Part shown: one piece after another, positions 1,031 through 20,719 of the stretch
Layout of the letters: each line of letters starts with the position of its first letter
How positions within the stretch are numbered: position 1 is the first letter of the stretch
IMG/VR virus record: IMGVR_UViG_3300049044_000033
Span: 32,001-96,000 of that record
Direction: 5' to 3' (one strand)
DNA length: 64,000 nucleotides
From: a virus
Taxonomy: Duplodnaviria; Heunggongvirae; Uroviricota; Caudoviricetes
Notes under the pieces: generated by a model
What the model saw: the letters and a program-made list of their open reading frames with translations, nothing else
Databases searched by the model: none
Told to the model about the DNA's origin: nothing
Made by a program: the position numbers and the translations under genes

Positions 1031-1281
1031 TGGCCACCCCAAGTAAGCTTGAACAGAGCAGCATCAGCCTCAGTATCAAAGTAAGCCTTCATCACAGGAC
1101 GACTAATCATGCGATCACTTGAATACCATACTCGTTGGTAGGCATTTTCTTTACCATAGTGATCTACCATCCATTGATACAGATTATCGATGTCGCGGAT
1201 GGGATAGACGAACGTTAGGCAAAACGGACCAAATCCCTCGAATGTCTCCGGACATACCCTGCCCTCTCGCGTGAGTTTCAT
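1027..1281 (-). CDS. LFKLxW-family small protein
   Basis: C-terminus FDTEADAALFKLTWGGQ; ATGA overlap start. Confidence 0.85.
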   Translation of the reverse strand: MKLTREGRVCPETFEGFGPFCLTFVYPIRDIDNLYQWMVDHYGKENAYQRVWYSSDRMISRPVMKAYFDTEADAALFKLTWGGQ

Positions 1282-1508
1282 TTGCCACCCCATACAAGTT
1301 TGAACAATAAAGCAACCTTGGGATCTTGAATCTCAACGATGCTATTTTGACCACAAGGAGAGAGGTCATGATCCCACCCAGTTGGTCCGGCGTGATCATC
1401 TAGCCATTGGAAGATCACTGAATTGAATACCTCAACAGTGCCCCAAGGAGACTCATGACATTTCTCCACAGACCAAGCCAAGCTACCAGGGATTTCAACT
1501 CTATACAT
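1278..1508 (-). CDS. LFKLxW-family small protein
   Basis: C-terminus IQDPKVALLFKLVWGGK; GGAG SD. Confidence 0.85.
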   Translation of the reverse strand: MYRVEIPGSLAWSVEKCHESPWGTVEVFNSVIFQWLDDHAGPTGWDHDLSPCGQNSIVEIQDPKVALLFKLVWGGK

Positions 1509-1530
1509 CTACTCCGCTATAGCGGGTTCC

Positions 1531-1782
1531 TTATAGCCATGTCAATTTGAACAATAGAGCATCACGATGGCACTCGAACTCACATGACATGAAGATAACT
1601 TGACCTGGTAAGGATTCCTTAACCGCCCAACGGAATTCATAATCATACTGGAGGAAGTCGAGAGCCCAATTATAGAAGAACTCAGCAAAGCGATGGCGGT
1701 ACTGAATCTCTGGATATTCAGCAGCCAATTCATTAAGGCGGGTCGAATGAATCTCAAGCCGGTGAGGGTATTCTACATCCAT
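1531..1782 (-). CDS. LFKLxW-family small protein
   Basis: C-terminus FECHRDALLFKLTWL. Confidence 0.85.
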   Translation of the reverse strand: MDVEYPHRLEIHSTRLNELAAEYPEIQYRHRFAEFFYNWALDFLQYDYEFRWAVKESLPGQVIFMSCEFECHRDALLFKLTWL

Positions 1783-1964
1783 GTTAATTTGAACAGCACC
1801 GCATCGGCTGGATTCTGAAAGGCAAACACCATCTTGATGACGCCACTCTCCAACCTACAGAAACAATCCCAAGACTTATCTAAACCGGCTGATCCTAATC
1901 TTTCTTTCAGCCAGTCGATCATCTGAAAGCTAACTAGGTCATATATGGTAGTGAGTTCAATCAC
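1773..1964 (-). CDS. LFKLxW-family small protein
   Basis: C-terminus FQNPADAVLFKLTWM. Confidence 0.85.
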   Translation of the reverse strand: MIELTTIYDLVSFQMIDWLKERLGSAGLDKSWDCFCRLESGVIKMVFAFQNPADAVLFKLTWM

Positions 1965-2194
1965 CAGACTTCTACTTTAAACAATATGGCTTCGGAGAGC
2001 TTTTCAAACAACAAGACACAATACTCTGAGGTTGACTTCCCACTATTGTCAAACCACAAACCACCATGGCGTAGTCCCCTACGTCCAATCCATTCATTGA
2101 ACCGGTCTGATGTAGTGTAGCCATCGACACCATAAGGATGCTCTTTCCAGATATTCGAGTTACTGTAGGGAGCCACTACCTCGATCAGGCCCAT
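1961..2194 (-). CDS. LFKLxW-family small protein
   Basis: C-terminus FEKLSEAILFKVEVW. Confidence 0.8.
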   Translation of the reverse strand: MGLIEVVAPYSNSNIWKEHPYGVDGYTTSDRFNEWIGRRGLRHGGLWFDNSGKSTSEYCVLLFEKLSEAILFKVEVW

Positions 2195-2616
2195 GTCAAC
2201 TTGACCATCACTTGTTGATCAGCGGGAACCCAGAGGGTCATAGTCTCTATACCATAATGGATGAACTTGAATCCATCAACAATAGGGAAGTCGCGAGCTT
2301 TACACCATTGCCTGAACTCTTCAGACTTCTCCTGTGGGATCTTGATATTCATCTCCACATAGCCACGCTCAATTAGCTCTGCCTCGGTGACGATCTCCTC
2401 ATCGTCAGATTCATCCCACTTGACTACCGTGGCGTTAAACATCATCTTGAACTGGAGAGCATAACGCTTGTCAAACAACTCCACGTTGTAGATCAGATGA
2501 CCATTAGCATCTACGCGGTTGGCTCCTTTGTAATCACCATGGAGGTAATAGCGAAGTTGATGATCCATCTCAAACAGATCATTATGCTCCTCAGAGACAT
2601 CAAAGACGTAACTCAC
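2185..2616 (-). CDS. LFKLxW-family protein with two tandem domains
   Basis: Internal LFDKRYALQFKMMF and terminal QQVMVKLTWA; GTGA overlap start. Confidence 0.8.
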   Translation of the reverse strand: MSYVFDVSEEHNDLFEMDHQLRYYLHGDYKGANRVDANGHLIYNVELFDKRYALQFKMMFNATVVKWDESDDEEIVTEAELIERGYVEMNIKIPQEKSEEFRQWCKARDFPIVDGFKFIHYGIETMTLWVPADQQVMVKLTWA

Positions 2617-2897
2617 AAACCACCCCACATTAGTTTAAACAACATTGCTTCCTTTTTAGTAAGGAAATGAACCAAGGAACGTCTACCAAATTGCGACCCC
2701 TTGAAAGTAGGCGTAGCATATGGATAAAGCCTAAGATCAACAATTTTCACCGTTACCCTAGGAACAACCGGCTGACAATTCTCTCGAACCCAAGTAAACA
2801 TATCCAGGCGCAATCTTGACATCTGGTCCACCAATTGATGAGTTGCTTCATACGCCAACTCAACTTGATACTTGCCCTTCGGGTGTAGTTCAGTCAT
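2613..2897 (-). CDS. LFKLxW-family small protein
   Basis: C-terminus FLTKKEAMLFKLMWGGL. Confidence 0.85.
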   Translation of the reverse strand: MTELHPKGKYQVELAYEATHQLVDQMSRLRLDMFTWVRENCQPVVPRVTVKIVDLRLYPYATPTFKGSQFGRRSLVHFLTKKEAMLFKLMWGGL

Positions 2898-3088
2898 CCC
2901 CAGGTCAACTTAAACAAAAGAGCATCCTTATAACAGGCAAACCTGAATTCTAAAAGAGCTTTTCCATCCTCATCATAGCTTACTCTGCCGTCCCAAGTCA
3001 AACTTCCAGGAAGACCAAACTGATCTTTAGCCCAGCGAAAAGGTTTTAAGGAATCATCACCTATGGGAATCTTAACAATGTGCTTCAT
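2894..3088 (-). CDS. LFKLxW-family small protein
   Basis: C-terminus FACYKDALLFKLTWG. Confidence 0.85.
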   Translation of the reverse strand: MKHIVKIPIGDDSLKPFRWAKDQFGLPGSLTWDGRVSYDEDGKALLEFRFACYKDALLFKLTWG

Positions 3089-3306
3089 CCCCAGGTCAAC
3101 TTGAAAAGCATAGCAGTCTTTTTGTCGGAGAAATTGTAGAATGTCCCACTGACTCTGCCATCAATACCAGAGAAGCCACACGAACCAAGCCATTTCTTCC
3201 CAGCATGAACTTTGAGCCATTCCTCAATTTCAGGACGAAGTGGCATACCAAAACCATCATAAACCCAAATCTCATGATGCAGGCCCTGCTCTACATACCG
3301 ACTCAT
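3085..3306 (-). CDS. LFKLxW-family small protein
   Basis: C-terminus FSDKKTAMLFKLTWG; ATGA overlap start. Confidence 0.85.
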   Translation of the reverse strand: MSRYVEQGLHHEIWVYDGFGMPLRPEIEEWLKVHAGKKWLGSCGFSGIDGRVSGTFYNFSDKKTAMLFKLTWG

Positions 3307-3539
3307 ATCCATGCCAACTTTAAAAGAGTAGCCTTCCTAGGATCCTTGATGTAGAAACACAAAATCCAAGAAGCCCCTGAACGTTTCCGCCAAGCAGACC
3401 AACCGTCTCCATACCACTGCTTGTCGTGAAGACTGAAATCAGTCAAAGGTCCAATATTCCCTTCCAGCCATTCCACTAGACTACCGGGAAGATCCCCCTT
3501 CTCCAAATCAATAGGTAGATCCATAAGAACGAAACTCAT
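3303..3539 (-). CDS. LFKLxW-family small protein
   Basis: C-terminus IKDPRKATLLKLAWI; ATGA overlap start. Confidence 0.85.
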   Translation of the reverse strand: MSFVLMDLPIDLEKGDLPGSLVEWLEGNIGPLTDFSLHDKQWYGDGWSAWRKRSGASWILCFYIKDPRKATLLKLAWI

Positions 3540-3739
3540 CTGCCACCCCAAGCTAACTTGAAATGAAAGGCTGATTCCAAATCAGCAAACCTAACAAGAC
3601 AGCTATTCGTAAAAAGACTAATCTCAAAGTCACAATTGGGATAATGGTCAACTATCCATTGCTTGAGCTCTTGAGCAAACTCATAACAGTCAACTGAACT
3701 AGGATAGCGAACTTCAATGCCAGATAACCAATTACTCAT
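3536..3739 (-). CDS. LFKLxW-family small protein
   Basis: C-terminus FADLESAFHFKLAWGGR. Confidence 0.85.
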   Translation of the reverse strand: MSNWLSGIEVRYPSSVDCYEFAQELKQWIVDHYPNCDFEISLFTNSCLVRFADLESAFHFKLAWGGR

Positions 3740-3992
3740 GCCACATCAACTTGAACAAAGTAGCCTGCGAAGCCTCTCCAAACTGGAATACCATACCATT
3801 GTCGCGAGCTTCCATTCCCCAATCATAGGTCATATTCTCAACTGCCCATGTCTCAAACTCAGGTTGAAGATCACGATGACTCCTACCAGAATTTTTCTCA
3901 CGAATCCTCAAAAGAATACCCATCGCACCTAATGCCGGAACCCATACCTTCTCATTGGAAAATGGAATGAAAACTTCGTAACTAGAACTCAT
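3732..3992 (-). CDS. LFKLxW-family small protein
   Basis: C-terminus FGEASQATLFKLMWHE. Confidence 0.85.
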   Translation of the reverse strand: MSSSYEVFIPFSNEKVWVPALGAMGILLRIREKNSGRSHRDLQPEFETWAVENMTYDWGMEARDNGMVFQFGEASQATLFKLMWHE

Positions 3993-4282
3993 ACGCCACC
4001 ATACGTCAACTTGAACAAAAGAGCCACAGTGGAATCATAGATCACTAGAGTGGCAATAGGATCCCTCTTTTCTCGTGGCTCGTCGATCGGAGGCCTTACG
4101 GATCTCTCCCCACAATAATACCAGCGAGTCCTAGCATCCAACCATTCTTCAACTTCTGGTCGAAGTCGTCGACCCCAAGCCTTGTAACCAGGCTGCTCGA
4201 ACATCAAAACAGCATTCGCCTTTGTAGGAGGCCGCTTGTAATCAACAGAAGCACTGGCCGGAATTTTGATCTTGGTAATCAT
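3989..4282 (-). CDS. LFKLxW-family small protein
   Basis: C-terminus IYDSTVALLFKLTYGGV; ATGA overlap start. Confidence 0.85.
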   Translation of the reverse strand: MITKIKIPASASVDYKRPPTKANAVLMFEQPGYKAWGRRLRPEVEEWLDARTRWYYCGERSVRPPIDEPREKRDPIATLVIYDSTVALLFKLTYGGV

Positions 4283-4524
4283 ATACCACCCCAAGTCAAC
4301 TTGAACAACATAGCAACATCATAGTCATCAAACACAACTATGGCTTTCTGAGGGTTGTGACTATCTACCGTCCATAACCAAGAACAACCTGGTGAGTAGC
4401 CAGTGAACGCAGAACCTGATCCAATATGATCCAATAACCAATACAGAACATCTCCCCGCAACTTGTAACTAGGTGGCGACCTATGGAACTCTAGAAGGTC
4501 ATTGGATATAGATACCCCGATCAT
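4279..4524 (-). CDS. LFKLxW-family small protein
   Basis: C-terminus FDDYDVAMLFKLTWGGI. Confidence 0.85.
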   Translation of the reverse strand: MIGVSISNDLLEFHRSPPSYKLRGDVLYWLLDHIGSGSAFTGYSPGCSWLWTVDSHNPQKAIVVFDDYDVAMLFKLTWGGI

Positions 4525-4826
4525 ATACCACCCCAGGTCATCTTAAACAGAAGAGCGGTATCAGGATCCTCTATAGAGAAAACCGCAGGACCATACTCAA
4601 CTAACTGTGGCCCATCAATATGAATCATGTCACAATACATAAACCATACCTGAATCTCTGGAATATTATTCCAATGACGTCCGCCGCCCTCTAACTCCCA
4701 ATATGACCCACTGGCGTTGAGCCAATCTTCTACCTCTCTAAAGAGAAGATACTGAACATTCTGCCCACCATGAACACCCATGACGAACACGCGCTCATTA
4801 TGCGGGCTGATATCCACCTTAGTCAT
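4521..4826 (-). CDS. LFKLxW-family small protein (first gene of array)
   Basis: C-terminus IEDPDTALLFKMTWGGI. Confidence 0.85.
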   Translation of the reverse strand: MTKVDISPHNERVFVMGVHGGQNVQYLLFREVEDWLNASGSYWELEGGGRHWNNIPEIQVWFMYCDMIHIDGPQLVEYGPAVFSIEDPDTALLFKMTWGGI

Positions 4827-7574: not shown

Positions 7575-10500
7575 TTAGGTATTCTTACCAGTTGTATCCA
7601 CTGTATTGTCATCCACCTTGATCAAATTGGTGTCGCTGGTTAGTTCAGCTTCACTCAACTTTGTATCATCAAGGTCACCAAAGAGGTCCCAAGTATTTGC
7701 GGCCACCTTGGTCAATGTTGCTTGGCTGAATTGCTTGCGGAGGTATCGTCCCACTGGAGTATTGATCACCACACCAGCTGCTGGAACAATTTCCGTCTGC
7801 CCCGTTCCAATCTGAACCACTTTGATCTCTGTGCCAACCGCAAAGCCTACACTCGCGTTAGTGGGCACAACCACTTGATTGTTAGAGCTGTTGGAGCGAC
7901 GAATATAAGCACCGGCATCATTTGCAGTCAGGGTATAGGCCAGACCAGTCTGAGGTGTTACCTTCATCGTACCAGCGTCGGCCATCCTCTGGCCAACCCA
8001 CTTCCTCAAACGTGAGAAGTAACGGAAGAGGTAGAATGTCAAACCATTAGGGCTGCTGTTGACCGCAGTAGTGGTCAACCAAGTAATTCCCTGACTCAAG
8101 TCATCTTGGAAAGTAACGTTCCTGCCACCATTCACATCCTGCTTGATGATAATGAGCACTTCACTATACATCTCACCACTTGTAGGTAGAGGTCCAGGTG
8201 CGTAGGTAGTGGCAAGTGGTGTCTTGATCGTAATAGTGGAACTTCCAGTTAGAGTAACTTGGAAGGACTTACCCGAGTTGGGATCAATAACACCACCATC
8301 GACCACACTATTATCATCTTCATAACGAAGATTTGCACCGCTTGCGGTGTAGTGGGCAAGGAAGTGACCTTCATCTGGCTGAACATCATAAGCCATTCTT
8401 GGACCACTAATAAAGTCCTGATCAGAACGCCTCTTGACTCGATTAAATGACCACTCACAGTTGCCGCTCTTGTAAAGCTTAGAGAACACGCCCTCGTAAG
8501 AGAATATCACGTTGTTGAGTTCAAGACGACTTACACCACTATTGTTGTTAGCCGTGCTGTAAAGACCCACTGTGTAGTTCACTATAGTATCAGGTTGCTC
8601 TTCTCTAGCCTGAACGTAAATGGTCTTGAGGCTTTCTCCCGCATTATCAGGGTCATCAATAGTATTACCCTGAGGATCAAGGAGGAATACTTCAATGATG
8701 TTATCATCTTCATCCATATTAACCACTGGATCGTCATTCTGATCCAGTACGAATACAGGTTCACCATTCTCCCAAATAGGTAGGCTGGGATTATTGATGC
8801 TGATTGTATAAGACTCAGGAGCAATCGCACCGATATTCTCCATCTTGAGAATACCACCATTGTGACGAATACCCTTCATCAGAGGGGCACCACTTACCAA
8901 TGTGTCAGTTCCATTTGAAACTTCAAGACCCGTCCAGCCACCGCTTGGTAGGCCCGAGTTCTGGAATACTACTCGTCCACCATCATCGCTGAAAATTCGA
9001 TTAGAAATCTTACCCTGGACCATGCAATTAGTAAAGGTCACATCGCCAACAATTATACCATCTAAGTCGATAACTGGTAGATCTGATTTATCTCCACTTC
9101 CACGTAGGAAATCACAATCCTTGATTTCAGCTGAGCTTACACCATCGACAATCGAGAAAGTAGGTCGGAAATCATTAGTGTCCGCAAAACTTGTATCAAC
9201 TGAGATATTGTTCATCAGGAAACGTTCAACATTGAACATAACCTGCAGATAACCCTTTACTACTGACTTAGTGGAACCAAAGAAGCCCTCTAACGCAATA
9301 TTGGTCTTATCAACGATTTGAACATCTTCTTCATAGATGCCACCAAGTAACATAATGGTGTAGATATTATTGGTGCTATTATTAGGGATACTCTGAAGAG
9401 CCTTATTAATAGTCTGATAAGGATCGTTCAGTGAACCGTTTCCACTTGTATCATCACCTGCGCTACTGACAAACAAAGTGTTGGGAATGACTTGATAGAA
9501 CTGAGCAGGGCTACTCCAAATGAGAGTATTGGATGGTCCAACAGTGAGGTATTGCCCGGAAGTTCCTGAGCCTACTGGCCACTGAAGTCCATTGAACTCC
9601 ATAGAGGGTGCCGAGAGAACAATGGGCGCACCTGCGCTACCCTGTAACATGATTCCATCTTCCCTCACGCTGACGGTGCTCTTAGGGGCGCTATCGGCGC
9701 TCAAGAGGCGAACACCTCCACTGTTAGAGCTAGTGAGGTAGAAATTCTTTAGATCCAAGTTGCCGCCAAGCTCTGGATCAACATCGGCTGCTACCTTGAC
9801 AATCTTGCTCTGAAGGTTCGCAAAGGTCACCTTCTTGGGCAAGTGGTCAGATGAACCCTGCCAGATAAACAGGTCATCATTACCAATATTGGAACTCTCA
9901 GTTGCGTTGCTGAGGTCTAGCTTGACTGTTGGTGTAACTGGATCGGAATCAACAGCAATGCCCTCACCAGCAGTAATACCAGATACTGTGCCAGTGTTCG
10001 CTGTAACCCACTGGAAGGCGCCGCCTGTGAATACTAGGTTGTAGGAGCCATTACCCGTTGGTGCGCTGAGGGTGGTGCTCTTGTTGGAAGCGCCGCCGAT
10101 AAGAAGTCCACCAGTCTCAAGAGTCTGATTCAACAAGCCATATGAAATGGTTTGCTTGCCCGTAGCAGTGAGGCGTCCCAATGCGTTAAAGGTAAAGGTT
10201 GGGAGAACAAATGTTCCCGAACCCGATCCTAGTCCTGAGGTTTCACTCCCGATCTGTGATCCAGTTGCATGACCCGCCGCCCAAGTGATAACATGGTCAG
10301 ATAGTGTCGTGGCAACTACTCTACCTTTGTTGTCGAGGGTAATGCTAATGTCTTTGGTCGCACTATTGAGGATTAGTTCGCCATTGTAGATTGAAGCCAA
10401 AGACATCGTGACTTCAATGACCGGATCGGCTGATCCAACCACAACTGCGCTTCCAAGTGTAGGCGTGGTACCTAGGGCATCACCCAAGAACTTTACTTGG

Positions 10501-10652
10501 GTCTTTTGAATTTTATCCAGTTCATCACTGGCCTGGAACAATGCCTGCTGAGTTACGGCAGTGTTATCCCTAAATCCTTGCGAGCTGTTATTCACGCCGG
10601 CGATAGGAAAGTCGGGATTTAGATTATTTGCTCTATTGCGAACGTCGCTCAT
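7575..10652 (-). CDS. large tail fibre/spike protein with putative beta-helix domain
   Basis: N-terminal FPIAGVNNSSQGFRDN virion motif; FVSSAGDDTSGNGSLNDPYQTINKAL motif typically precedes pectin-lyase-like beta-helices; fibre-type C-terminus YTLTANDAG...GTEIKVVQIGTGQ. Confidence 0.7.
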   Translation of the reverse strand: MSDVRNRANNLNPDFPIAGVNNSSQGFRDNTAVTQQALFQASDELDKIQKTQVKFLGDALGTTPTLGSAVVVGSADPVIEVTMSLASIYNGELILNSATKDISITLDNKGRVVATTLSDHVITWAAGHATGSQIGSETSGLGSGSGTFVLPTFTFNALGRLTATGKQTISYGLLNQTLETGGLLIGGASNKSTTLSAPTGNGSYNLVFTGGAFQWVTANTGTVSGITAGEGIAVDSDPVTPTVKLDLSNATESSNIGNDDLFIWQGSSDHLPKKVTFANLQSKIVKVAADVDPELGGNLDLKNFYLTSSNSGGVRLLSADSAPKSTVSVREDGIMLQGSAGAPIVLSAPSMEFNGLQWPVGSGTSGQYLTVGPSNTLIWSSPAQFYQVIPNTLFVSSAGDDTSGNGSLNDPYQTINKALQSIPNNSTNNIYTIMLLGGIYEEDVQIVDKTNIALEGFFGSTKSVVKGYLQVMFNVERFLMNNISVDTSFADTNDFRPTFSIVDGVSSAEIKDCDFLRGSGDKSDLPVIDLDGIIVGDVTFTNCMVQGKISNRIFSDDGGRVVFQNSGLPSGGWTGLEVSNGTDTLVSGAPLMKGIRHNGGILKMENIGAIAPESYTISINNPSLPIWENGEPVFVLDQNDDPVVNMDEDDNIIEVFLLDPQGNTIDDPDNAGESLKTIYVQAREEQPDTIVNYTVGLYSTANNNSGVSRLELNNVIFSYEGVFSKLYKSGNCEWSFNRVKRRSDQDFISGPRMAYDVQPDEGHFLAHYTASGANLRYEDDNSVVDGGVIDPNSGKSFQVTLTGSSTITIKTPLATTYAPGPLPTSGEMYSEVLIIIKQDVNGGRNVTFQDDLSQGITWLTTTAVNSSPNGLTFYLFRYFSRLRKWVGQRMADAGTMKVTPQTGLAYTLTANDAGAYIRRSNSSNNQVVVPTNASVGFAVGTEIKVVQIGTGQTEIVPAAGVVINTPVGRYLRKQFSQATLTKVAANTWDLFGDLDDTKLSEAELTSDTNLIKVDDNTVDTTGKNT

Positions 10653-10667
10653 TCGATCCTCTTCCTC

Positions 10668-12665
10668 TTAAATATCGCCAGGTGGAAATTTGTAGTATTT
10701 ACTCTCCGACTTCAAAGCGCGGTCAAAAGTCGTTGGCGTAGTCGTTGGGGTGTCTGGGTTTTCTGGACCGTCAAAAATGATAATATCTAGGAAGCTCAAT
10801 TCTTCTGAGTCATCGTCCTTGGCATCACCGTCCATATCATTGTAGAATGTGGTTGCTGAGAAGCCATCGCTCAATAGTAGGTATCTATCTACCTCAATTG
10901 TGCTACCCTGGAGGTCTTCATTCATACCAGCAGTCTCGAGGGCTTTGACTATTGCGGGACCACTTCCTGATCTCACGTAGGCAAGTTCAATAGCAGCCTG
11001 GTAGCCAAGAACCGTTGAGGGCTTTCCAAGTTCTTGCTCACACATCATCCAAAGTGGTAAACCTTCTCGGCCTAATATACCAAGACCTGCTTGACCGGCT
11101 AGGCGGTTTGCGGTATTGATAAGATCCAGACGCAAGTTCTTTATGCTGTTTGGATAGTATTGATTTTGATCAGCAGGGAGGTTCCATTGATTAATGGCAG
11201 TAGGGTTCTGACCCGCAACATATCTTGGTAGGTGTTCTTCCCTCTGGATAGAATTAAAACCACCTGCACCTTCCATAGGATCCACAATAGTCATGTAGAT
11301 GACATCGTAGATGTGAGTTCCTTCTGGAGAGCGAGCCTTTGCGCTCTTGATCTGTCCTACCCTCAAGGTTGTAGGATGGTGGTAATCCTTGAGGTAATCC
11401 AGCAAACCTCCACTATAGTTGAGACCATTAGTGAGTAGGATTTTGTAATCACGCTTTCTACCAAAGTAAACATCAGAACGCCTAAAGAGATTATCCCATC
11501 CCAATATAGTGAGTTTGTCCTGAGTTCTCAGTTCTGCTTGGTTACCCCAAACCCAACGAGCCAGTTTCTCTCTGATTAGTGGAGAGACATTAATCTGAAG
11601 ACTGGTAGTAGATTCGGAAATAAAGATGTTCCTGATCGTGATACTAAAGGTGCGTTCGCCCGCAATAGTCGACTGGCGGATAGCACCAGTTTCATTGTGA
11701 ACGAATACCACCCTTGCTTCAACGGTGAATTCAAATGTCTTGTTAATGGTCACGTAGGGACAGCGACCAATAATCAATCCTGACATTGGGTCGAGCAATA
11801 AACCATCGGGTAGTGGTTTGCTCTTTGGTGTAATGGTATATTGAATGGTCTGACTCTCTAGGGAGTTCAAGCCACTGACCTCATATTGAGGAACTGCTTT
11901 AACTGCAAAGTGACTTGGGTAGGTCTCGTAAGTCGACCCTAGACTTCCCGCAGGCGTCTCCCAACGCACCGCGTCAGACAAACGGGCATCCAACACTATC
12001 TCAGTGCCAATGGTGAGGCGATAGATCTTCTCAGAAGTCCTTGGCGAACCTTCTTCGCGTGGGTTGCTCAAGAGATCATCAGGATCTCGAGCATAAACCC
12101 TGAAGTAATAGTCTCCAGGCTTATTGCCTGTAATATTGGGTGATCCCACGATCCTACCCCTGGAGTCAATTTCAAGTCCTCCGGGTAGACCTTGGAAAGT
12201 ATTAGCCGGACCCACAAAGCCAACTGCTTTATAGACCAGCTTGTCTCGGTCAGGGTTCACAATATCGAGTTGAACCGTAACACCCGAACCTCTGTTGAAC
12301 GTTCCTAGGTATTGAATGCCAGTTGGACTTTCCCAGTGCTGTTCTTCATCAATAGGATTGACAATTAGCTTGAATGACCTGTCATAAGTCCTGGTAGAGT
12401 TCTGGAATGTTACTCGGAAGACTACAGGATATTCAGTTTTATCCTTAGGTAGTTCCTCAATGGTTCCCATGATCTTATTTGAACCGCCATTAAAGAATAG
12501 ACCCAAGGGCAAAGTGCCACCGATCATTGTAATGGCTTCAAAATCACTGAATAGAGGATGAGAAGTATCAAGTTCCAAGTTGACATTCACAACGTCAGCA
12601 CGGCGCCATGGTTCTCCGTCATTCAACAGATCACCGCTTTGTGGTGCTGACCAAATTGTTGCCAT
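10668..12665 (-). CDS. virion/baseplate structural protein with three complete putative-Ig (He_PIG-like) domains
   Basis: 3x W...L.../LPxGL...G.I.G/F.V...R.F.I.V; GGAGGA SD before ATG 12665 (start corrected from 12812). Confidence 0.7.
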   Translation of the reverse strand: MATIWSAPQSGDLLNDGEPWRRADVVNVNLELDTSHPLFSDFEAITMIGGTLPLGLFFNGGSNKIMGTIEELPKDKTEYPVVFRVTFQNSTRTYDRSFKLIVNPIDEEQHWESPTGIQYLGTFNRGSGVTVQLDIVNPDRDKLVYKAVGFVGPANTFQGLPGGLEIDSRGRIVGSPNITGNKPGDYYFRVYARDPDDLLSNPREEGSPRTSEKIYRLTIGTEIVLDARLSDAVRWETPAGSLGSTYETYPSHFAVKAVPQYEVSGLNSLESQTIQYTITPKSKPLPDGLLLDPMSGLIIGRCPYVTINKTFEFTVEARVVFVHNETGAIRQSTIAGERTFSITIRNIFISESTTSLQINVSPLIREKLARWVWGNQAELRTQDKLTILGWDNLFRRSDVYFGRKRDYKILLTNGLNYSGGLLDYLKDYHHPTTLRVGQIKSAKARSPEGTHIYDVIYMTIVDPMEGAGGFNSIQREEHLPRYVAGQNPTAINQWNLPADQNQYYPNSIKNLRLDLINTANRLAGQAGLGILGREGLPLWMMCEQELGKPSTVLGYQAAIELAYVRSGSGPAIVKALETAGMNEDLQGSTIEVDRYLLLSDGFSATTFYNDMDGDAKDDDSEELSFLDIIIFDGPENPDTPTTTPTTFDRALKSESKYYKFPPGDI

Positions 12666-12788: not shown

Positions 12789-14015
12789 ATGGGTATTAGA
12801 ATCAAAGGTCAATACAAGCCCGTGGGCATGATCAAGTTTAGACGCTCGCTCATCGCTCCAGTGTTTGCCGTCTTACCAAGCATTACCTACAATACTCTCT
12901 TAGTGGGTGATACTTTCACAGCAAATGACGGAACTGCTTCTCCTGCTAATGCGGTAGTAAGTCGTCGCTGGCTCTTGGATGGAGAACAGATCGGAACCGG
13001 CTCCTTTGTAGTCGTAGAAGTTCCTGGTTCGCTCGTCCTAGAGGTAACCTATACTAATGGCGCAGGATCGGTCACTGAAACAACTTCGGCAATTGATATC
13101 GACTATGCGGAACTAGTATTCAGCACTCTCCCAAGCATCAGTTATCCAGATCTATTTGTTGGTAGCACTTTTACGGCAGTGGACGGTGAATGGACTCCAC
13201 TAAATGCTGATATGGAACGCCGCTGGCTACTAGGTGGTGTTGAGATTGGTACTGATGAAACAGTTACACCAGAAGCAGGTGGTATTCTAACACTTGAAGT
13301 GACTATTAGCAATCCAGGTGGTTCGCTGACTAAGACTGCTTCAATCACTATTGCGGCACACCAGCCGGCCTTTACCGTTGATCCAAGCATCTCACCAAAT
13401 GGTGGTCCAATGGGAACTACCTTTACTGGTAATGATGGTACCTACCAGTATGGTACAGTGACTAGCAGGTCTTGGTTGTTTGATGGTCAAGTCATTAATG
13501 GCGCAACCACTGACACTTACATCTCGGATGGCATTGGTCAGGTTTCCTATCGCGTTACTATCACAGGCGCAGGTGGAACTTTAACTAAGACTTCAACTGC
13601 GGTTTCCTCTACTTCAGTTCCTGAAAAGCTCAACCCTCCAGTATGGGCAACACAGACTGGTAACTTGGGAACCTACGCAGAAGGCACTGCGATCAGCATT
13701 CCACTGTTGGTAACTGATCCTGAGAATAACGTTCAGAAGTATGAAATTACCAGTGGAGCACTGCCAAATGGTACCACGATTAACCTAACTACTGGTTTGA
13801 TCTCTGGTACCCTCGCAGAAGTTGTCACCGATACCGTTTACACCTTCACCGTTAAGGTAACTGACAGAACCAACCTGACACTGACTGGAACGTTCTCGAT
13901 TAACGTCGCTAACGTGAAGACCACTGTTGTTTGGGAAACAGATAATAGTTCTGACCTAGCACAGCCTGCTCCAGGTGAAACTATTACTGTGGCCTTGGGA
14001 GCAACGTCTAGCTAA
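12789..14015 (+). CDS. Ig-like repeat virion protein (putative fibre anchor)
   Basis: 3x PSI...G.TFT..DG....R.WL..G Ig-like repeats, one complete He_PIG-like domain, then only the first strands of another domain; GGAGG SD. Confidence 0.75.
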   Translation: MGIRIKGQYKPVGMIKFRRSLIAPVFAVLPSITYNTLLVGDTFTANDGTASPANAVVSRRWLLDGEQIGTGSFVVVEVPGSLVLEVTYTNGAGSVTETTSAIDIDYAELVFSTLPSISYPDLFVGSTFTAVDGEWTPLNADMERRWLLGGVEIGTDETVTPEAGGILTLEVTISNPGGSLTKTASITIAAHQPAFTVDPSISPNGGPMGTTFTGNDGTYQYGTVTSRSWLFDGQVINGATTDTYISDGIGQVSYRVTITGAGGTLTKTSTAVSSTSVPEKLNPPVWATQTGNLGTYAEGTAISIPLLVTDPENNVQKYEITSGALPNGTTINLTTGLISGTLAEVVTDTVYTFTVKVTDRTNLTLTGTFSINVANVKTTVVWETDNSSDLAQPAPGETITVALGATSS

Positions 14016-15163
14016 TGGCTAAGGTTCTATCTATCCGATATACTGTGGTCGACGGCGCGCTTCCTAATGGACTCGCGCTAAACCCTGAAACTGGGGCAAT
14101 CACAGGCAGTCCTGACTATAGTGCTTTGAACCAGGGACCAGTATGGCAAACCGCTTCTGGTAGTCTAGGTACCTATAACGAGAATGATGCTTTTACACCA
14201 GTAACTTTCTCTACCACGACAACACATAGCCCGGTTGTTTTTAGTCTTTCCACCTCTAACGATAAGTTACCTTGGGGGTTGGTTCTTAATCCAACCACTG
14301 GAACTATTTCGGGAACTGTTGCACCACTAAAGCAACGAGTTAAAGAAGCCGGTGTGACCTTCGATGGTCCTACTTGGAACACTCAGTTTGGTAAGCTGGC
14401 TAACTTTGATGAAGGTCAAGTCTCAGCTATCAACTTGTCTGCCACTCCCCTTGGTAGCAGGACGATTAAGGCTTACTCAGTTGTCGAAGGCGACCTTCCA
14501 TTTGGTCTAGTGTTGAACCTAAAGACTGGGGTGATTTCAGGAACTGTTGGACGATTGAAGAACCCTGGTCCATTCGTTGACGTTCCTAAACTACCAGTTC
14601 CTGTGTGGAACCAAGCAGCTGGTAATATTGCGACTATTCACGAGACTGAATCTCTCACTATGTCAATCGGAGCAACACCTGACTCTAGTCGCTCAATGTC
14701 CAAGTATATTATTCGTGAAGGCAACTTACCACTTGGTTTAAAACTCAACATCAATACTGGTGCAATTACTGGAACGGCGGCTTTCCTTCCTTATAAGGAA
14801 GCTGCCTACTATGATTCCACGATGGATCCAGTATTCAGTGACACAGTGACAATTGGCGGATCACCCTCAACCGTAGTGGATCAGGGTAGTTTGGGTTCTT
14901 ATTCAAAAGGTGCTTCAGTCTCGATAGCTCTGAGTGCTACTCCTGCTTCTGGTAGAACTATCAAGAACTATTCGATAACTAATGGAGCATTGCCCTTGGG
15001 CTTGAAGCTCAACGCAACCACTGGGGTAATCTCGGGAACTATTCTCAATAGTGCTTTTGTGGCACTAAAGACTTACAACTTTACAGTAGCGGTTGTCGAT
15101 AAGGATGGAAGTTTCTTCCTACAAAATAATAAGTCAAGAACCTACAAGATTGTAGTTCAGTAA
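14015..15163 (+). CDS. putative-Ig repeat scaffold protein A1
   Basis: 5x LPxGLxLNxxTGxIxG motifs; TAATG overlap with upstream gene; close paralogue of 16531..17676. Confidence 0.8.
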   Translation: MAKVLSIRYTVVDGALPNGLALNPETGAITGSPDYSALNQGPVWQTASGSLGTYNENDAFTPVTFSTTTTHSPVVFSLSTSNDKLPWGLVLNPTTGTISGTVAPLKQRVKEAGVTFDGPTWNTQFGKLANFDEGQVSAINLSATPLGSRTIKAYSVVEGDLPFGLVLNLKTGVISGTVGRLKNPGPFVDVPKLPVPVWNQAAGNIATIHETESLTMSIGATPDSSRSMSKYIIREGNLPLGLKLNINTGAITGTAAFLPYKEAAYYDSTMDPVFSDTVTIGGSPSTVVDQGSLGSYSKGASVSIALSATPASGRTIKNYSITNGALPLGLKLNATTGVISGTILNSAFVALKTYNFTVAVVDKDGSFFLQNNKSRTYKIVVQ

Positions 15164-15175
15164 AGGAATTAAGTC

Positions 15176-16504
15176 ATGGCAGTATTCAACTTTACCGTTC
15201 GAGCCACTGATAGTGAAGGCTCCTATAGTGATCGCCAGTTCAATATCACCGTTCGTAATTCTCGAGTAGAACGCTTTATGGTTGTTGACTCGGCTGATGC
15301 CTGGACTTCACCTGATGGAACCACTTGGACACAAAGAGTCGGCCAGGGCGGTATTACTTGCGCATATGGTAATGGCTTCTGGCTAATTCTTAAGAGCACC
15401 GCTAATATGACGTGCTTGAAGTCGACTGATGGTGTAAACTTTGCCCAAATAACTAACACCAGTATGACTTTTACTGATGTTGATACTAGCACTACCCTAT
15501 CTGGACCTACAGGTCTTGACGCAAGGGTCAAGTTAAAGTTCTGGAATGGAACATTTTATTATTTGACCTGCCTGGGAACTAATGGAACCTATGCTCTGTA
15601 TTCAACAGTTGATGGTATTAACTGGAAGAGGAAGGTTCTCTTCCAGGAGGTAAATAGTAACAACGGTGTTGCCTTCATTCCATCAACTTCTCAGAATAGA
15701 ATAGAATTATACGACGATAATGGAACATTATTTGTTCCATTCGCTGCAGGTTGTGTTACTACGGTTACTATGAATCCTGGATCTGGATTTGTAAATTGTA
15801 TGGGATGGTCCACGACTGATGGTGTGACCTTTACACCAATACAGAATGCCTCTCAAACATCAAAGCTAACTTCTAAAGGTGCAGGTATAATTACTCGAAT
15901 CAACGGGGTGTATTTGGCCTTCAATACAACCCACAATAATACAACAATGGTCGGATCTGTTTCTATAGGACTTTCTAGTAACGCAAATCCCTCCTATTCT
16001 ACATTATGGGCAAATTACCTATATTCGACTGATGGTTTGAATTGGACAATCGGTACTAATACAGCTTTAGCTACTAGCAATTCTAACCAATCTCAAGGCT
16101 TAGATTGTCCAATAAGTGTAAACGGTCAAATCTACATGTTGCCAGCGGCAGTCAGTCCAAACAGCGAAGGTACTGATACAGTAACACAGATATCCTATAT
16201 TCTCTCCACTACAGATCTTTTAACGTGGACTTCGACTGCTATGAAAAATGATATCGCTTGGAGCACCACTGGTTTGGGTTCTCCCCGATTTAGGAAAGTG
16301 ATATTTAAGAACGGTGTCCTGCTTTATGTTCCATCCTCAACATCTGGAGTTGATACTAACGCGGGCACTAACAGAGGGGTCAACGGCTTTAGAGTTTCTG
16401 TCGATGGAGGAACAACTTGGACGGTAGTAAACACTTTAGGTAATTACCCTGCTGCTAGTAGCAGTGGCAATGCTAAGATCTATAACGACGTAGCAGCAAT
16501 GTAA
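15176..16504 (+). CDS. putative receptor-binding head B1 (Asp-box/BNR-like beta-propeller)
   Basis: Repeated S-x-D-G-x-x-W/F motifs (SPDGTTW, STDGVNF, TVDGINW, STDGLNW, SVDGGTTW); N-terminus shared with 17689..18909. Confidence 0.7.
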   Translation: MAVFNFTVRATDSEGSYSDRQFNITVRNSRVERFMVVDSADAWTSPDGTTWTQRVGQGGITCAYGNGFWLILKSTANMTCLKSTDGVNFAQITNTSMTFTDVDTSTTLSGPTGLDARVKLKFWNGTFYYLTCLGTNGTYALYSTVDGINWKRKVLFQEVNSNNGVAFIPSTSQNRIELYDDNGTLFVPFAAGCVTTVTMNPGSGFVNCMGWSTTDGVTFTPIQNASQTSKLTSKGAGIITRINGVYLAFNTTHNNTTMVGSVSIGLSSNANPSYSTLWANYLYSTDGLNWTIGTNTALATSNSNQSQGLDCPISVNGQIYMLPAAVSPNSEGTDTVTQISYILSTTDLLTWTSTAMKNDIAWSTTGLGSPRFRKVIFKNGVLLYVPSSTSGVDTNAGTNRGVNGFRVSVDGGTTWTVVNTLGNYPAASSSGNAKIYNDVAAM

Positions 16505-16530
16505 TCTTTATTCAAGGAGGCGTCTAACTA

Positions 16531-17676
16531 ATGGCTAAGATTTTATCAATTCGCTACACACTAGTGGATGGATCGCTTCCAAATGGTATGAAGCTGAATC
16601 CTGATACTGGTGTGATCTCAGGCAGTCCTGGTTTTGACGCATTGGGACAGGGTCCAGCTTGGCAGACTACTGCGGGAAGTCTTGGAACCTACAATGAGAC
16701 TGATGTAATCACCCCAGTAACATTTTCGGCAACCACTACTCACAGTCCTGTAGTCTTCAGTCTCGCAACATCAAATGATAAGTTGCCTTGGGGCTTAGTC
16801 CTCAACCCAACCACTGGAGTTCTTTCTGGAACCATTGCAGCATTGAAGTTGAGGGTTAAGGAAGAAGGGGTGACCTTCGACGGTCCTACTTGGAATACCT
16901 CTTTCGGTAAGTTGGCAGGATTTGATGAAGATGCCGTGGCTAGTATAAACTTGTCTGCAACACCTCTAGGTAGCCGAACCATTGCTCGCTATACTGTGGT
17001 CGAGGGTGCTCTTCCTTGGGGTTTAAAGCTCAACCCGGCTACTGGTGTTATCACTGGCAGTGTAGCTCGCCTTAAGAACCCAGGTGCTTATGTTGACGTT
17101 CCAAAGCTTCCTGTGCCAGTCTGGTCCACAGCTTCAGCTCTCGGAACTCTAAACGAATATGAAACCGCTAATTTCACTCTAGCAGCAACACCTGATACTG
17201 GTCGATCCATGGCTAAGTATATCATTCGAGAAGGCGCTCTTCCTTGGGGTCTAAAGCTCAATAGCGTAACTGGTGCTATTACGGGAACGGCAGCTGATAT
17301 CTTGAAAAGGAATGAACCTGTTTATTATGATTCTGCCAATAACCCAGTATTCAGTGATACTGTAGTGATAAATGGCAGCAATACAACGGTAACTAATAAT
17401 GGTAGTATTGGTTCCTATACTAAGGGAACTGCGGTCTCGGCTACATTCTCTGCTACCCCAGTATCTGGTCGAACTGTAAAGAACTATTGGATGACTGGTG
17501 AATTGCCTTGGGGCTTGAAGTTCAACCCGACTACTGGTGTAGTTTCAGGAACTATCGTCAATAACGCAAGGGTAGTGAGTAAGACTTACACCTTTAATAT
17601 TTTCGTCACCGACAAGGACGCACCAAGTTATTTGGTAAATAGTTCAAGTCGAACCTTCACAATAACTGTTCAGTAA
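16531..17676 (+). CDS. putative-Ig repeat scaffold protein A2
   Basis: Paralogue of 14015..15163 over its full length; AAGGAGG SD. Confidence 0.8.
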   Translation: MAKILSIRYTLVDGSLPNGMKLNPDTGVISGSPGFDALGQGPAWQTTAGSLGTYNETDVITPVTFSATTTHSPVVFSLATSNDKLPWGLVLNPTTGVLSGTIAALKLRVKEEGVTFDGPTWNTSFGKLAGFDEDAVASINLSATPLGSRTIARYTVVEGALPWGLKLNPATGVITGSVARLKNPGAYVDVPKLPVPVWSTASALGTLNEYETANFTLAATPDTGRSMAKYIIREGALPWGLKLNSVTGAITGTAADILKRNEPVYYDSANNPVFSDTVVINGSNTTVTNNGSIGSYTKGTAVSATFSATPVSGRTVKNYWMTGELPWGLKFNPTTGVVSGTIVNNARVVSKTYTFNIFVTDKDAPSYLVNSSSRTFTITVQ

Positions 17677-17688
17677 GAGGTAAAAACA

Positions 17689-18909
17689 ATGGCAGTATTT
17701 AATTTTACAGTAAGGGCGACTGACAGCGAAGGTTCTTATGCCGACCGTCAGTTCAATATCACTGTTCGTAACTCGCGCGTCGAGCGTTTCATGGCAGTCA
17801 CCTCTACCGATGCGTGGACTTCACCCGATGGTACTACTTGGACACAAAGAAACGGCCAGAGTGGATTTACTTGTGCGTATGGTAATGGTTTCTGGCTAAT
17901 CCTTAAATCTCAAGCGACTGGAACATCGGCTCTAAAGTCAACTGATGGTATTAACTATTCGGCCATTTTACCGGCAAACCAGACGTTTGTTGACGAAACT
18001 GGCACTGCAATCACCGGTCTTACCAATGGTCCAATCTTTACTGCGTTGTCACTTGCCCGTCTGCGTTTTTGGAATGGACGATTCTGGATTGTCACAACAA
18101 ATGGTAGTAATCAGTCTGGTACTTCTGCCACTATGTTTTATGACTTATGGTCCACTGCTGATGGTATCACTTGGAGAAGAAATAGACTTCTCACACTCTC
18201 ATCTGGTGCTTTAAATACTCCTCCTGTTCCATATTTGGTAACAATGTATGAAGACAATGGAACATTCTTTATTCCATTCTCCTGTAGTTATAACACTCCT
18301 GTTCCTGCAGCTGGAAATAACTGGTGCTATGGTTGGTCAACTACGGATGGTACAACCTTTACTCAGATCCGAGATACTACAGTAACGTCTTCAACTTCGT
18401 CGACCTTTTACGGAGCATCTATTCTTAACCGAATTAACGGTGTCTATTTCGTTATGCCTACCACTACTGGAGGCTCAACTAACTGGACACAGACAACATT
18501 TAGGTATTCAACTGATGGTCTGAACTGGACTACATCGACATTCAATGCTAATGCTGGAACCAACGCTCCATTGAATTTTGTTTATGCAAATGGCCAAGTT
18601 TATTCATTCACACAAAAACAATCATCAGGTGTTGGTTCTACTGCAAATTACTTTACGTCGTCGGACGGCGTGACCTGGAATATGACTGAATTCAAATCAT
18701 TTAATACCACTGCTGGTGTTATCCACCACTCGGTTTATAAGAACGGTGTGTTCTTAATGGCAGGGTCTGTTGCTACTGGCACAGACACTAACAACTCTAC
18801 GTTGTCTGTTCCTAATAATGGTTTGCGTGTCTCCGTTGATGGTTCGACTTGGACAAGCGTTAATGTTGGTTCTGGAACTATCAACTATGCAGACGTTGCT
18901 GCAATGTAA
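17689..18909 (+). CDS. putative receptor-binding head B2 (Asp-box/BNR-like beta-propeller)
   Basis: Same repeat motifs; first ~70 aa nearly identical to B1, remainder divergent; both end Y.DVAAM. Confidence 0.7.
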   Translation: MAVFNFTVRATDSEGSYADRQFNITVRNSRVERFMAVTSTDAWTSPDGTTWTQRNGQSGFTCAYGNGFWLILKSQATGTSALKSTDGINYSAILPANQTFVDETGTAITGLTNGPIFTALSLARLRFWNGRFWIVTTNGSNQSGTSATMFYDLWSTADGITWRRNRLLTLSSGALNTPPVPYLVTMYEDNGTFFIPFSCSYNTPVPAAGNNWCYGWSTTDGTTFTQIRDTTVTSSTSSTFYGASILNRINGVYFVMPTTTGGSTNWTQTTFRYSTDGLNWTTSTFNANAGTNAPLNFVYANGQVYSFTQKQSSGVGSTANYFTSSDGVTWNMTEFKSFNTTAGVIHHSVYKNGVFLMAGSVATGTDTNNSTLSVPNNGLRVSVDGSTWTSVNVGSGTINYADVAAM

Positions 18910-19016: not shown

Positions 19017-19655
19017 TTACGCTGCTGGCTCCCTACGGGCTTCTTCCAATTCGCTAATGAGAACAATCCGCTCAGTAGACGAGAAGTCTGAGTTAGAGAG
19101 CTTAAACATCATCGCATCATTGGCGTTAAGGAAGAAGAACGATGCGTTCCAATCAGTGTTGGCCCGGTAATCACCTTCCCTACCCTCAAAATATTCCTGA
19201 CACCATAGATTCATCTTGTTGATGTGGGAGGAATCATACTGACCTCTTTGGGTCTTGAGCTTGGCTCGAACCGCAAAGCGGTATTTGTCATAGAAGAGTT
19301 TCTTCCTCGTGATGACCTTTTCCTTCTCCAACATCTCAGAATGTTGGCTATCGAGCGGCTTCTCATACTCAACGAGGTATTGCTCGCCTATCGTCGACTT
19401 TATGTGATCAAAGATCTCGGGATCAGAAAAGAATAAGGTATAATAGGTACGCTCGGCCGCCCAACGGTTAACCACCCACGCCCATTTGTCGCTCTCTGTG
19501 CCTCTGTAATCTGCCTTGTTGAACTTCTGAGCCAATACCCATTTGATCACATCAGGAGTGGGCTTCTTATCATCGTCCTTGGTAGATTGACAGTCTACTA
19601 CCAAGCGGTGATTGAACTTCTTGTAATAGATCTTACGGGTGACCAGTTCTTTCAT
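19017..19655 (-). CDS. two-domain LFKL-family-related protein
   Basis: FFFLNANDAMMFKLS motif; GGAGG SD before ATG 19655. Confidence 0.75.
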   Translation of the reverse strand: MKELVTRKIYYKKFNHRLVVDCQSTKDDDKKPTPDVIKWVLAQKFNKADYRGTESDKWAWVVNRWAAERTYYTLFFSDPEIFDHIKSTIGEQYLVEYEKPLDSQHSEMLEKEKVITRKKLFYDKYRFAVRAKLKTQRGQYDSSHINKMNLWCQEYFEGREGDYRANTDWNASFFFLNANDAMMFKLSNSDFSSTERIVLISELEEARREPAA

Positions 19656-19663
19656 TAACCCTC

Positions 19664-19930
19664 CTAGCAACTCAGCTTGATTGTCATTGCGTCTCGATCT
19701 GTTTTTGCGACGACAATCACCTGCAGCATGGAGGTGGTTACTTGATTTCCCTTTGTCTCGTAGGTTGGATACCAGACTACCTTGCCCTCAAACGACATGG
19801 AATCAAACCAAGCTTTGAAGGAGTCTAGGTCTTCGCCTTCCTCAAAATAGATGTAGAAGGTATGACCCGGCTGATCCTTAAGCCTTGGGTGATGATGACT
19901 CACAGGAGAGAAATGGAGGAAAATCTTCAT
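19664..19930 (-). CDS. LFKL-family small protein
   Basis: C-terminus KTDRDAMTIKLSC. Confidence 0.75.
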   Translation of the reverse strand: MKIFLHFSPVSHHHPRLKDQPGHTFYIYFEEGEDLDSFKAWFDSMSFEGKVVWYPTYETKGNQVTTSMLQVIVVAKTDRDAMTIKLSC

Positions 19931-19965
19931 GCGCCCACCATAATGGCAGGGCAGTCATGTTGTCA

Positions 19966-20205
19966 TTATTCGTGCGACAACCTACAGCGCATCGCGTCTT
20001 TTTTGTTGAGGAAATGATAAGAATTGGTCAGAGTGGTTTCATTCAAGAGGGCAGCGGCACCTACATTATAGGTTAGGTGTTCTAAATTATCTTTACACCA
20101 AACTACCACATTGGTAAGTTCTACCACACTCCCGTGATAGACGAGCACAAATGGCAAGGGATAGCTAGGATTGCCCGTAAAGTCGTGGAAATACTTGAGC
20201 TTCAC
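19966..20205 (-). CDS. LFKL-family small protein
   Basis: WCKDNL...FLNKKDAMRCRLSHE. Confidence 0.75.
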   Translation of the reverse strand: MKLKYFHDFTGNPSYPLPFVLVYHGSVVELTNVVVWCKDNLEHLTYNVGAAALLNETTLTNSYHFLNKKDAMRCRLSHE

Positions 20206-20471
20206 AACATCACCAACTTGAAGCGCATCGCATCATTCTTGGACTTGAATCCAAACTTCTGAACCATCAAAGCGGTTCCATTCTTAATGGCTTTAATTTT
20301 GCTGCTGAATGTACCGTCGCCTGGGATTATCTCAGGATATTCAGCTTTGTTATAGATTACAAACATGGTTTTATTCTGATCTACCCACCGACAGCACTGG
20401 CCAAGTTCAGTCTCAGTGCCTTCGACGTAGAACCAAGTCAAGTCGGTTTGGATGGTGTTTGTGATCTTCAT
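20202..20471 (-). CDS. LFKL-family small protein
   Basis: FKSKNDAMRFKLVML. Confidence 0.8.
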   Translation of the reverse strand: MKITNTIQTDLTWFYVEGTETELGQCCRWVDQNKTMFVIYNKAEYPEIIPGDGTFSSKIKAIKNGTALMVQKFGFKSKNDAMRFKLVML

Positions 20472-20719
20472 TCCACACTCAACTTAAACATGAGGGCATC
20501 CTGTTTATTGGAGAAGGTCAAGACGCAATAGTGAAGATCTCCGGTATTCTCTCCCAAGTCCCAACAGATGGGTCCCGGAGTCATACCTGTGGGAAAGCGA
20601 TCTCGCGCTTGGGAGACGATCATTCGAATAACAGAAGGAACACCTGATACCCACACGGAAGTCTGACCCTTATCAGGCCAGTCCTCCTTTGCTTTGAGGT
20701 GGTAATCTGCTAGTCGCAA
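20468..20719 (-). CDS. LFKL-family small protein
   Basis: FSNKQDALMFKLSVE. Confidence 0.75.
   Translation of the reverse strand: MRLADYHLKAKEDWPDKGQTSVWVSGVPSVIRMIVSQARDRFPTGMTPGPICWDLGENTGDLHYCVLTFSNKQDALMFKLSVE

Follow-up and report, generated by a model that had tools for sequence, protein, structure and literature searches.

In a 64,000-nucleotide stretch of a jumbo phage genome, bases 32001-96000 of the 462,455-bp virus record IMGVR_UViG_3300049044_000033, which has direct terminal repeats (this whole stretch is called the window below), we have identified five consecutive genes whose products divide immunoglobulin-like (Ig) units of the He_PIG type between separate polypeptides: an anchor, two scaffolds (A1 and A2) and two heads (B1 and B2). 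We consider it fairly probable that Atu_ph07-like jumbo phages carry a conserved virion appendage in which three separate proteins, anchor, scaffold and head, are joined by the completion of He_PIG Ig units across chains. At the first junction, the anchor would supply strands A and B, and the scaffold strands C, D and E, of one unit, and the sequence suggests that the two halves pair through strands B and E. At the second junction, the F-G hairpin that opens B would enter between strands C and A' of A1 amino acids (aa) 194-269, restoring an A'-G-F-C sheet, and the propeller of B would rest on the complete terminal unit of the scaffold. The outcome would be a thin rod of Ig units with one propeller head per scaffold, A1/B1 and A2/B2 being two versions of it with different heads. 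This reading stands on the layout of the genes and their domains and its conservation, on homologous proteins found in virions and on a controlled model of the complex.

An earlier note on this DNA, made from the letters alone, had claimed that the five genes begin or end inside He_PIG units. The open reading frames (ORFs), the coverage of the Pfam profile and a unit hidden Markov model (HMM) of 77 positions, built from the A short units, all bear this claim out. He_PIG (PF05345) was found above its gathering score of 24 bits in A1 (119 bits), A2 (121 bits) and the anchor (43 bits). A1 and A2 are each composed of a 39-aa half unit, three short units of 76-77 aa and one complete unit. When the 96-position Pfam profile was run over the whole genome, the A N-terminus matched positions 37-72, the short units 15/20 to 65/72, and the last unit 8-95 in A1 and 3-95 in A2. 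Coverage over the full length (~1-96) was seen only for the complete unit of the anchor and for unit 5 of A; units 1-4 of A and the N-termini of B gave partial matches. The short units stop after the TG.I.G strand and are without the Y.F.V...F.I.V block, so that only unit 5 is complete, as had been read from the letters, and their hydrophobic patterns are similar, unit 4 included. It is this missing block with which the B proteins start (positions 72-95 in B1 and 71-95 in B2) before they continue into an Asp-box propeller, again in agreement with the earlier note. With the unit HMM, the last 27 residues of the anchor correspond to positions 4-29 and the start of A to position 36.

Earlier start codons for A1, B1 and B2 were considered and rejected, since each of these frames is closed shortly before its start by an in-frame stop, one codon upstream for A1 and B1 and four codons upstream for B2. 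The A1/B1 and A2/B2 spacers are 12 nt each, with a Shine-Dalgarno site, and two in-frame TAA codons stand in the A1/B1 spacer. At the anchor/A junction, the stop and start codons overlap in all 14 junctions examined (TAATG, ATGA or GTGA) and a GGAG-like site is found upstream; the two halves are therefore translated next to each other and should pair. In the closing stretch of the anchor tail, the codons of a conserved L-(G/E)-A (window 13990-14010, and 13 relatives) spell GGAG(G/C), about 12-16 nt before the A start, and the last strand of the tail thus doubles as the ribosome-binding site of A. The spacer between B1 and A2 (window 16505-16530) ends in GCGTCTAACTAATGG, which resembles the last anchor bases before A1, ACGTCTAGCTAATGG, and this spacer may be the remnant of a lost second anchor gene.

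No near-identical DNA was found in the phage collection searched. The relatives include Agrobacterium phage Atu_ph07 (490 kb; MF403008), Sinorhizobium phage Phosso (469 kb; PV764938) and many metagenomic contigs of 416-480 kb, and both cultured phages encode the anchor, A and B, as gp239, gp240 and gp241 in Atu_ph07 and as gp681, gp680 and gp679 in Phosso. The gene order anchor-A-B is shared by Phosso, Atu_ph07 and the relatives compared for synteny as loci L003 to L011 and L016. In seven of eight anchor/A pairs (about 30-100% identity), the anchor tail starts at unit-HMM position 4/5 and ends at 28-30, and A starts at 35/36; the eighth pair, that of Atu_ph07, has the same cut by reading of its sequence. 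Each of the 19 anchor orthologues, 200-408 aa in length, closes with the same half-unit tail. On the A side, some 40-50 full-length relatives turned up, and every one examined has a half-unit N-terminus, whether it has 4 or 10 units. None of the long multi-He_PIG proteins of the same match list (844-1991 aa) ends in such a tail; these lie mostly on short contigs, several of them named from bacteria. Its recurrence in independent genomes that share as little as about 30% identity takes the pattern far beyond chance, and an assembly or sequencing error is ruled out by the same cuts in isolate genomes and in many independent metagenome assemblies. The proposal of the earlier note that the anchor donates strands to unit 1 of A is likewise strengthened by a cut conserved at one loop and by the overlapping, translationally coupled stop and start codons.

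Some relatives depart from the common layout. A 10-unit scaffold is followed by two B genes in L011 (767-5215), a scaffold of at least 1306 aa is also followed by two in L012 (63-6244), and in L015 (36-5119) the order is tail donor, B, A, B. In Atu_ph07, the annotated start of A is 75 nt too short (L002:6907-6981); with the ATG that overlaps the gp239 stop (ATGA) as its start, the protein gains the conserved half-unit N-terminus.

In virions of Atu_ph07, gp239 (the anchor), gp240 (A) and gp241 (B) were all detected by electrospray ionization tandem mass spectrometry, and gp239, of 15.8 kDa, was the most abundant protein in a low-mass gel band (PMC6102473, Table S5). The three are therefore structural proteins, and separate ones. 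The Atu_ph07 particle carries tail fibres as well as thin "hairy whiskers", the latter being called mainly capsid-associated (PMC6102473). In the window and in L003 and L004, the three-gene set adjoins tail-fibre-like genes, and because of this synteny it is plausible that the appendage is a tail fibre. B1 also gave a weak PHROG match over aa 22-181 (window 15239-15718) to the C-terminal part of phrog_460, "head closure Hc2" (E = 9e-5), which might relate to the capsid-associated whiskers of Atu_ph07.

The earlier note had suggested a search of related genomes for more ORFs that start with the hairpin, and such a search brought out a B family of 163 clusters at 50% identity. The matches described here are the 150 listed of these 163. 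Nearly all of them can be aligned from residue 1 onwards; the few others cover propeller repeats only. No natural A-B fusion is present among these 150, and none of those bearing the hairpin also carries a He_PIG socket unit. The hairpin is the most constant part of the protein: in 60 B sequences, residues 1-28 hold 7 of the 11 invariant columns, and the mean top-residue frequency is 0.73 over residues 1-31 versus 0.23-0.25 over residues 101-442. Over their first 35 codons, B1 and B2 show 20 synonymous differences and 1 non-synonymous difference, which argues for selection on the protein and not for recent gene conversion. A search of this genome with a hairpin HMM and with Pfam He_PIG at E <= 1 gave no hairpin donors besides B1 and B2.

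The propeller of B is visible in the translation as Asp-box-like S/T-x-D-G-x-x-W repeats. The gathering score of BNR_2 (PF13088), 31.4 bits, was missed by B2 (28.5 bits, E = 1.2e-6), and B1 had no match to this family. AlphaFold2 (AF2) nevertheless folded B1 alone into a confident propeller, with a predicted local distance difference test score (pLDDT) of 84 and a predicted template modelling score (pTM) of 0.86, in which the N-terminal hairpin is already formed (pLDDT 83-91). Foldseek related this propeller to sortilin Vps10, Ycf48, GH74 and kelch propellers, the best viral match being the Atu_ph07 homologue. The propeller is probably the ligand-binding part. Those A proteins that have a C-terminal lectin fusion (P0015 and others) keep a downstream B gene.

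A prediction of the complex of anchor, A1 and B1 had been named beforehand as a check. It was made with ESMFold2 on anchor residues 283-408, A1 and B1, the latter as the scored partner, along with three controls with unrelated proteins. B1 docked with an interaction prediction score from aligned errors (ipSAE) of 0.78 (runs of 0.79, 0.73 and 0.78), and the best of the three controls reached 0.08. In the calibration of the tool, this mark was attained for 58 of the 80 solved complexes and for 2 of the 110 mismatched pairs, figures that serve only as a rough guide here because our own alignments were used. The runs had at least 88% of contacts in common, with a partner pLDDT of at least 70, and B was not docked (0.08) in the control where A1 was replaced and the anchor fragment kept. 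In the model, strand F of the hairpin (B1 6-11) lies antiparallel to strand C of unit 4 (A1 229-235), strand G (B1 22-27) lies parallel to strand A' of the same unit (A1 204-209), and the propeller contacts A1 317-372 in the complete unit 5. The modelled sheet order, A'-G-F-C, is the one described for the solved He_PIG fold 4nzj (PMC6936399). The modelled geometry is also topologically tidy, as the removal of F-G leaves the chain ends of the unit in place and the donated hairpin ends beside unit 5. The complex model thus supports binding between A and B; it does not demonstrate it. Of the head docking by strand complementation that the earlier note had put forward, the entry of the hairpin into unit 4 is supported by this controlled model and by the extreme conservation of the hairpin, and the four sockets are not.

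A2 has a possible tail donor elsewhere in the genome. This orphan protein, of 340 aa, is encoded 33 kb away and outside the window (G000:C1:11522-12541, minus strand, the same as L021:3020-4042, minus strand), and it is composed of a LamG-like N-domain, a complete He_PIG unit and the half-unit tail, with 67% identity to anchor aa 279-407. Its downstream neighbour is not an A-type gene, and the protein probably serves A2. In this genome (G000), tail donors equal A genes in number. In G001, a second A without an adjoining anchor is likewise accompanied by a full-length LamG, He_PIG and tail orthologue. G002 and G004 have two small anchors each, G005 has one anchor-A-B set in the stretch examined, and in these three the LamG orthologue is a LamG-like domain alone, of 202-233 aa, with no He_PIG unit or tail. 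In L003, a LamG-like domain is fused to the C-terminus of A. The balance of donors and acceptors is hard to explain without complementation in trans, and the distribution suggests that "He_PIG + tail" behaves as a movable connector module. The orphan donor itself lies in a cluster of structural-looking genes, which encode proteins of 763 aa, 219 aa (Big_9-like) and 330 aa, and a collagen-like G-X-Y protein of 352 aa (L021:56-1114).

Several points weigh against the completion of units across chains. Given a spare He_PIG hairpin of any kind, a structure predictor may be inclined to use it to complete an Ig fold, and AF2 was confident on A1 alone (mean pLDDT 86, pTM 0.43, a beads-on-a-string model that Foldseek likens to cadherin arrays) and on B1 alone, so that to this program neither protein has an obvious gap. 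F-G is missing from units 1-3 as it is from unit 4, and the genome holds no donor for them; should they be stable without filling, the same might be true of unit 4, which in a comparison within A is no more conserved than the rest. There is also a precedent in the same Pfam clan, since Rib domains, related to He_PIG and an example of "domain atrophy", have lost a whole sheet in comparison with long-Rib and are yet thermostable (PMC6936399), so that short units left unfilled need not be sockets. Perhaps, then, no strand complementation takes place at all: the short units would be self-sufficient atrophied Ig-like domains, the gene boundaries would fall in loops, the N-terminus of B would have its own fold or another binding partner, and the complex model would be an artefact. 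The resemblance to Rib extends to tandem rod-forming units of ~77-79 aa with two core strands lost with respect to a complete clan relative (PMC6936399). The losses, however, are on opposite halves: in Rib, D and E of the B-D-E sheet are gone and A'-G-F-C stays, whereas the A short units keep B-D-E, with the LP.GL...TG.I.G core, and lack F-G. Unlike in Rib, moreover, an F-G hairpin is separately encoded next door. This alternative leaves unexplained why 19 of 19 anchors end in a two-strand half unit and every A starts with its complement, why B opens with a hairpin that matches He_PIG positions 72-95 and varies less than any other part of that protein, and why the loss of an adjoining anchor coincides with the gain of the tail module by another protein. 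Furthermore, the short units of the AF2 monomer of A1 have few paired strands, with unpaired C strands and linkers of low confidence. We therefore regard the absence of complementation as unlikely, though it is the more serious of the alternatives.

The earlier note had gone further than a single docking site, with up to four sockets per scaffold. In that case, all four units without F-G in each scaffold would take B1 or B2, giving a comb-like branched fibre of about four heads per scaffold in mixed combinations. The shared truncation and similar hydrophobic pattern of units 1-4 speak for it, as do the nearly identical hairpins of B1 and B2, which would make these heads interchangeable, and the two B genes that follow one long scaffold in L011, with its 10 units, and similarly in L012. 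Yet with one B supplied, unit 4 was chosen in three of three runs, together with a contact between propeller and unit 5 that is impossible for the other units. Scaffolds of 4-10 units are still accompanied by no more than one or two B genes, the gene arrangement is one to one, the only donors in the genome are B1 and B2, and stable reduced Ig-like domains are known. This branched, combinatorial form therefore looks quite improbable; the model supports only one head socket, and from it we infer one head per scaffold. For the three remaining short units, a role as reduced spacer domains seems likelier to us than one as additional sockets, although they may also be faces for lateral packing. Recoding would make the split only apparent: a -1 frameshift at anchor/A and stop read-through at A/B would yield one chain with ordinary covalent domains. 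Relative to the anchor, A is indeed shifted to the -1 frame in the window, Phosso and Atu_ph07; B follows A in frame after 12 nt in the window, and Phosso has an annotated tRNA with a CUA anticodon near the locus. A programmed frameshift is nonetheless ruled out by the absence of a slippery heptamer in all 14 anchor/A junctions and by gp239 of Atu_ph07, which runs mainly at its own small size. An A-B read-through fusion is ruled out by the two in-frame TAA codons of the A1/B1 spacer, by the Shine-Dalgarno site that each gene has of its own and by unit 5 being already complete, after which a fusion would place a second F-G block; the stops, besides, are TAA and not TAG. A single recoded chain is thus hardly credible. 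The annotation of the Phosso gene in question (L001:2317-2392) is tRNA-Pyl, anticodon CTA, which could make it an amber suppressor. It stands among many tRNA genes near the fibre locus and has no bearing on the finding, because the stops at the A/B junctions of the window are TAA.

Donor-strand systems are known from chaperone-usher pili (Fim, Pap, Caf1), and type V pili and TasA are related fibres built by strand donation. In chaperone-usher pili, an Ig-like subunit that is without its C-terminal strand or strands is completed in trans by the N-terminal extension of its neighbour. The proposed completion of split He_PIG units resembles this, as the N-terminus of a neighbour would complete the unit in trans through a non-covalent and, judging by the model, probably very stable joint. 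It would differ in several respects. Two strands, as an F-G hairpin, would be donated instead of one, and a second kind of cut, A-B from C-D-E, is found at the anchor junction. The assembly would be heterotypic and finite (anchor, scaffold, head), unlike homopolymeric pili, in which every subunit donates as well as accepts; A is without an F-G hairpin to spare and B without a socket unit. The fold is He_PIG (cadherin-like) and not pilin, and assembly would take place in the cytoplasm of the phage-infected cell. A periplasmic chaperone and an outer-membrane usher would not be expected for a particle made there, and none turned up among the neighbouring genes, where no search aimed at such genes was made.

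Branched or adaptor-mounted receptor-binding proteins are well established in phages, such as TSP1-4 of CBA120, gp66 and gp63.1 of G7C, the SP6 and K1-5 adaptors, and those of RaK2. The present set shares with them a conserved N-terminal docking module on a divergent head, duplicated head genes and a modular exchange of heads on a shared scaffold. To our knowledge, the known receptor-binding systems of phages dock via trimeric N-terminal domains (T4 gp10-like and similar) and not through the completion of an Ig fold. No such adaptor or docking family was matched here in Pfam or PHROGs, and the parts of the set, Ig rods and a propeller, look monomeric, unlike the trimeric receptor-binding proteins. 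The closest solved sequence relative of A is found in the cadherin-like modules of SraP (PDB 4m00 to 4m03, E = 6e-6), which likewise are He_PIG/cadherin-like units with the LP.GL...TG.I.G core. The SraP units, however, are complete and belong to one chain of a bacterial adhesin, whereas those of the phage are split between proteins. HMMER aligned linker 4 of A1 to the F-G strands of SraP; this is a weak local alignment and was not taken as an F-G of unit 4's own. Our literature search returned nothing relevant on donor-strand exchange or strand complementation in phage fibres, nor on He_PIG in phages.

The coordinates of the set and of two neighbours on the opposite strand are collected in Table 1. 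The three He_PIG stretches that had been read in the 665-aa neighbour were recovered by Pfam, and the 1025-aa neighbour has a weak pectinesterase-like match besides its PHROG tail families. On the other side of the set, five small minus-strand ORFs (window 19017-20719) have a common C-terminal motif, ...DA(M/L).(F/I)KL..., and were assigned to a large paralogue family (window 1-4826).

Table 1. Features of the split He_PIG gene set and its neighbours, in window positions.
Feature	Position	Strand	Basis or remark
Anchor, 408 aa: conserved MGIR... N-terminus, three ~85-aa repeats, one complete He_PIG unit, half-unit C-terminal tail	12789..14015	+	
Anchor, complete He_PIG unit (aa 283-377, 95 aa)	13635..13919	+	Pfam He_PIG profile positions 12-96
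Anchor, tail (aa 378-408), strands A and B only; proposed donor to A unit 1	13920..14012	+	Unit HMM
TAATG stop/start overlap of anchor and A1; GGGAG Shine-Dalgarno-like site within last anchor codons	14013..14017	+	
Scaffold A1, 382 aa	14015..15163	+	
A1, half unit (aa 1-39), strands C, D and E only	14015..14131	+	Pfam 37-72; unit HMM 36-61
A1, short units 2 and 3 (aa 40-193), without strands F and G	14132..14593	+	Pfam, unit HMM
A1, short unit 4 (aa 194-269), modelled socket for B hairpin	14594..14821	+	Complex model
A1, linker and complete He_PIG unit 5 (aa 270-382)	14822..15160	+	Pfam 8-95; model interface residues 317-372
Head B1, 442 aa: N-terminal F-G hairpin, then beta-propeller	15176..16504	+	
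B1, hairpin (aa 1-31), equivalent of He_PIG strands F and G	15176..15268	+	Pfam 72-95
Scaffold A2, 381 aa, 68% identical to A1; no adjoining anchor gene	16531..17676	+	
Head B2, 406 aa, 49% identical to B1	17689..18909	+	
B2, hairpin, one residue different from B1 hairpin	17689-17781	+	
Syntenic neighbour, 665 aa, three He_PIG stretches	10668..12665	-	Pfam; position kept in L003, L004
Syntenic neighbour, 1025-aa tail-fibre-like protein	7575..10652	-	PHROG tail and tail-fibre families; position kept in L003, L004

Taken broadly, we lean slightly towards the view that the two kinds of cut (A-B from C-D-E, and C-D-E from F-G) are a chaperone-free phage counterpart of the donor-strand complementation of pili, with "He_PIG + tail" and the F-G hairpin as portable connectors that have been moved onto the MGIR anchor, the LamG-like lectin and the propellers; its boldest form would be the branched comb of heads weighed above, every short unit being a socket. 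If cross-chain completion is true, it would be a new assembly principle for the receptor-binding machinery of phages, in which the completion of split Ig units replaces dedicated trimeric adaptor domains. The paired halves would moreover be natural two-strand "tag and catcher" pairs, perhaps of use in protein engineering. For the jumbo phages of ~400-490 kb themselves, it would account for widespread virion proteins that are now called hypothetical.

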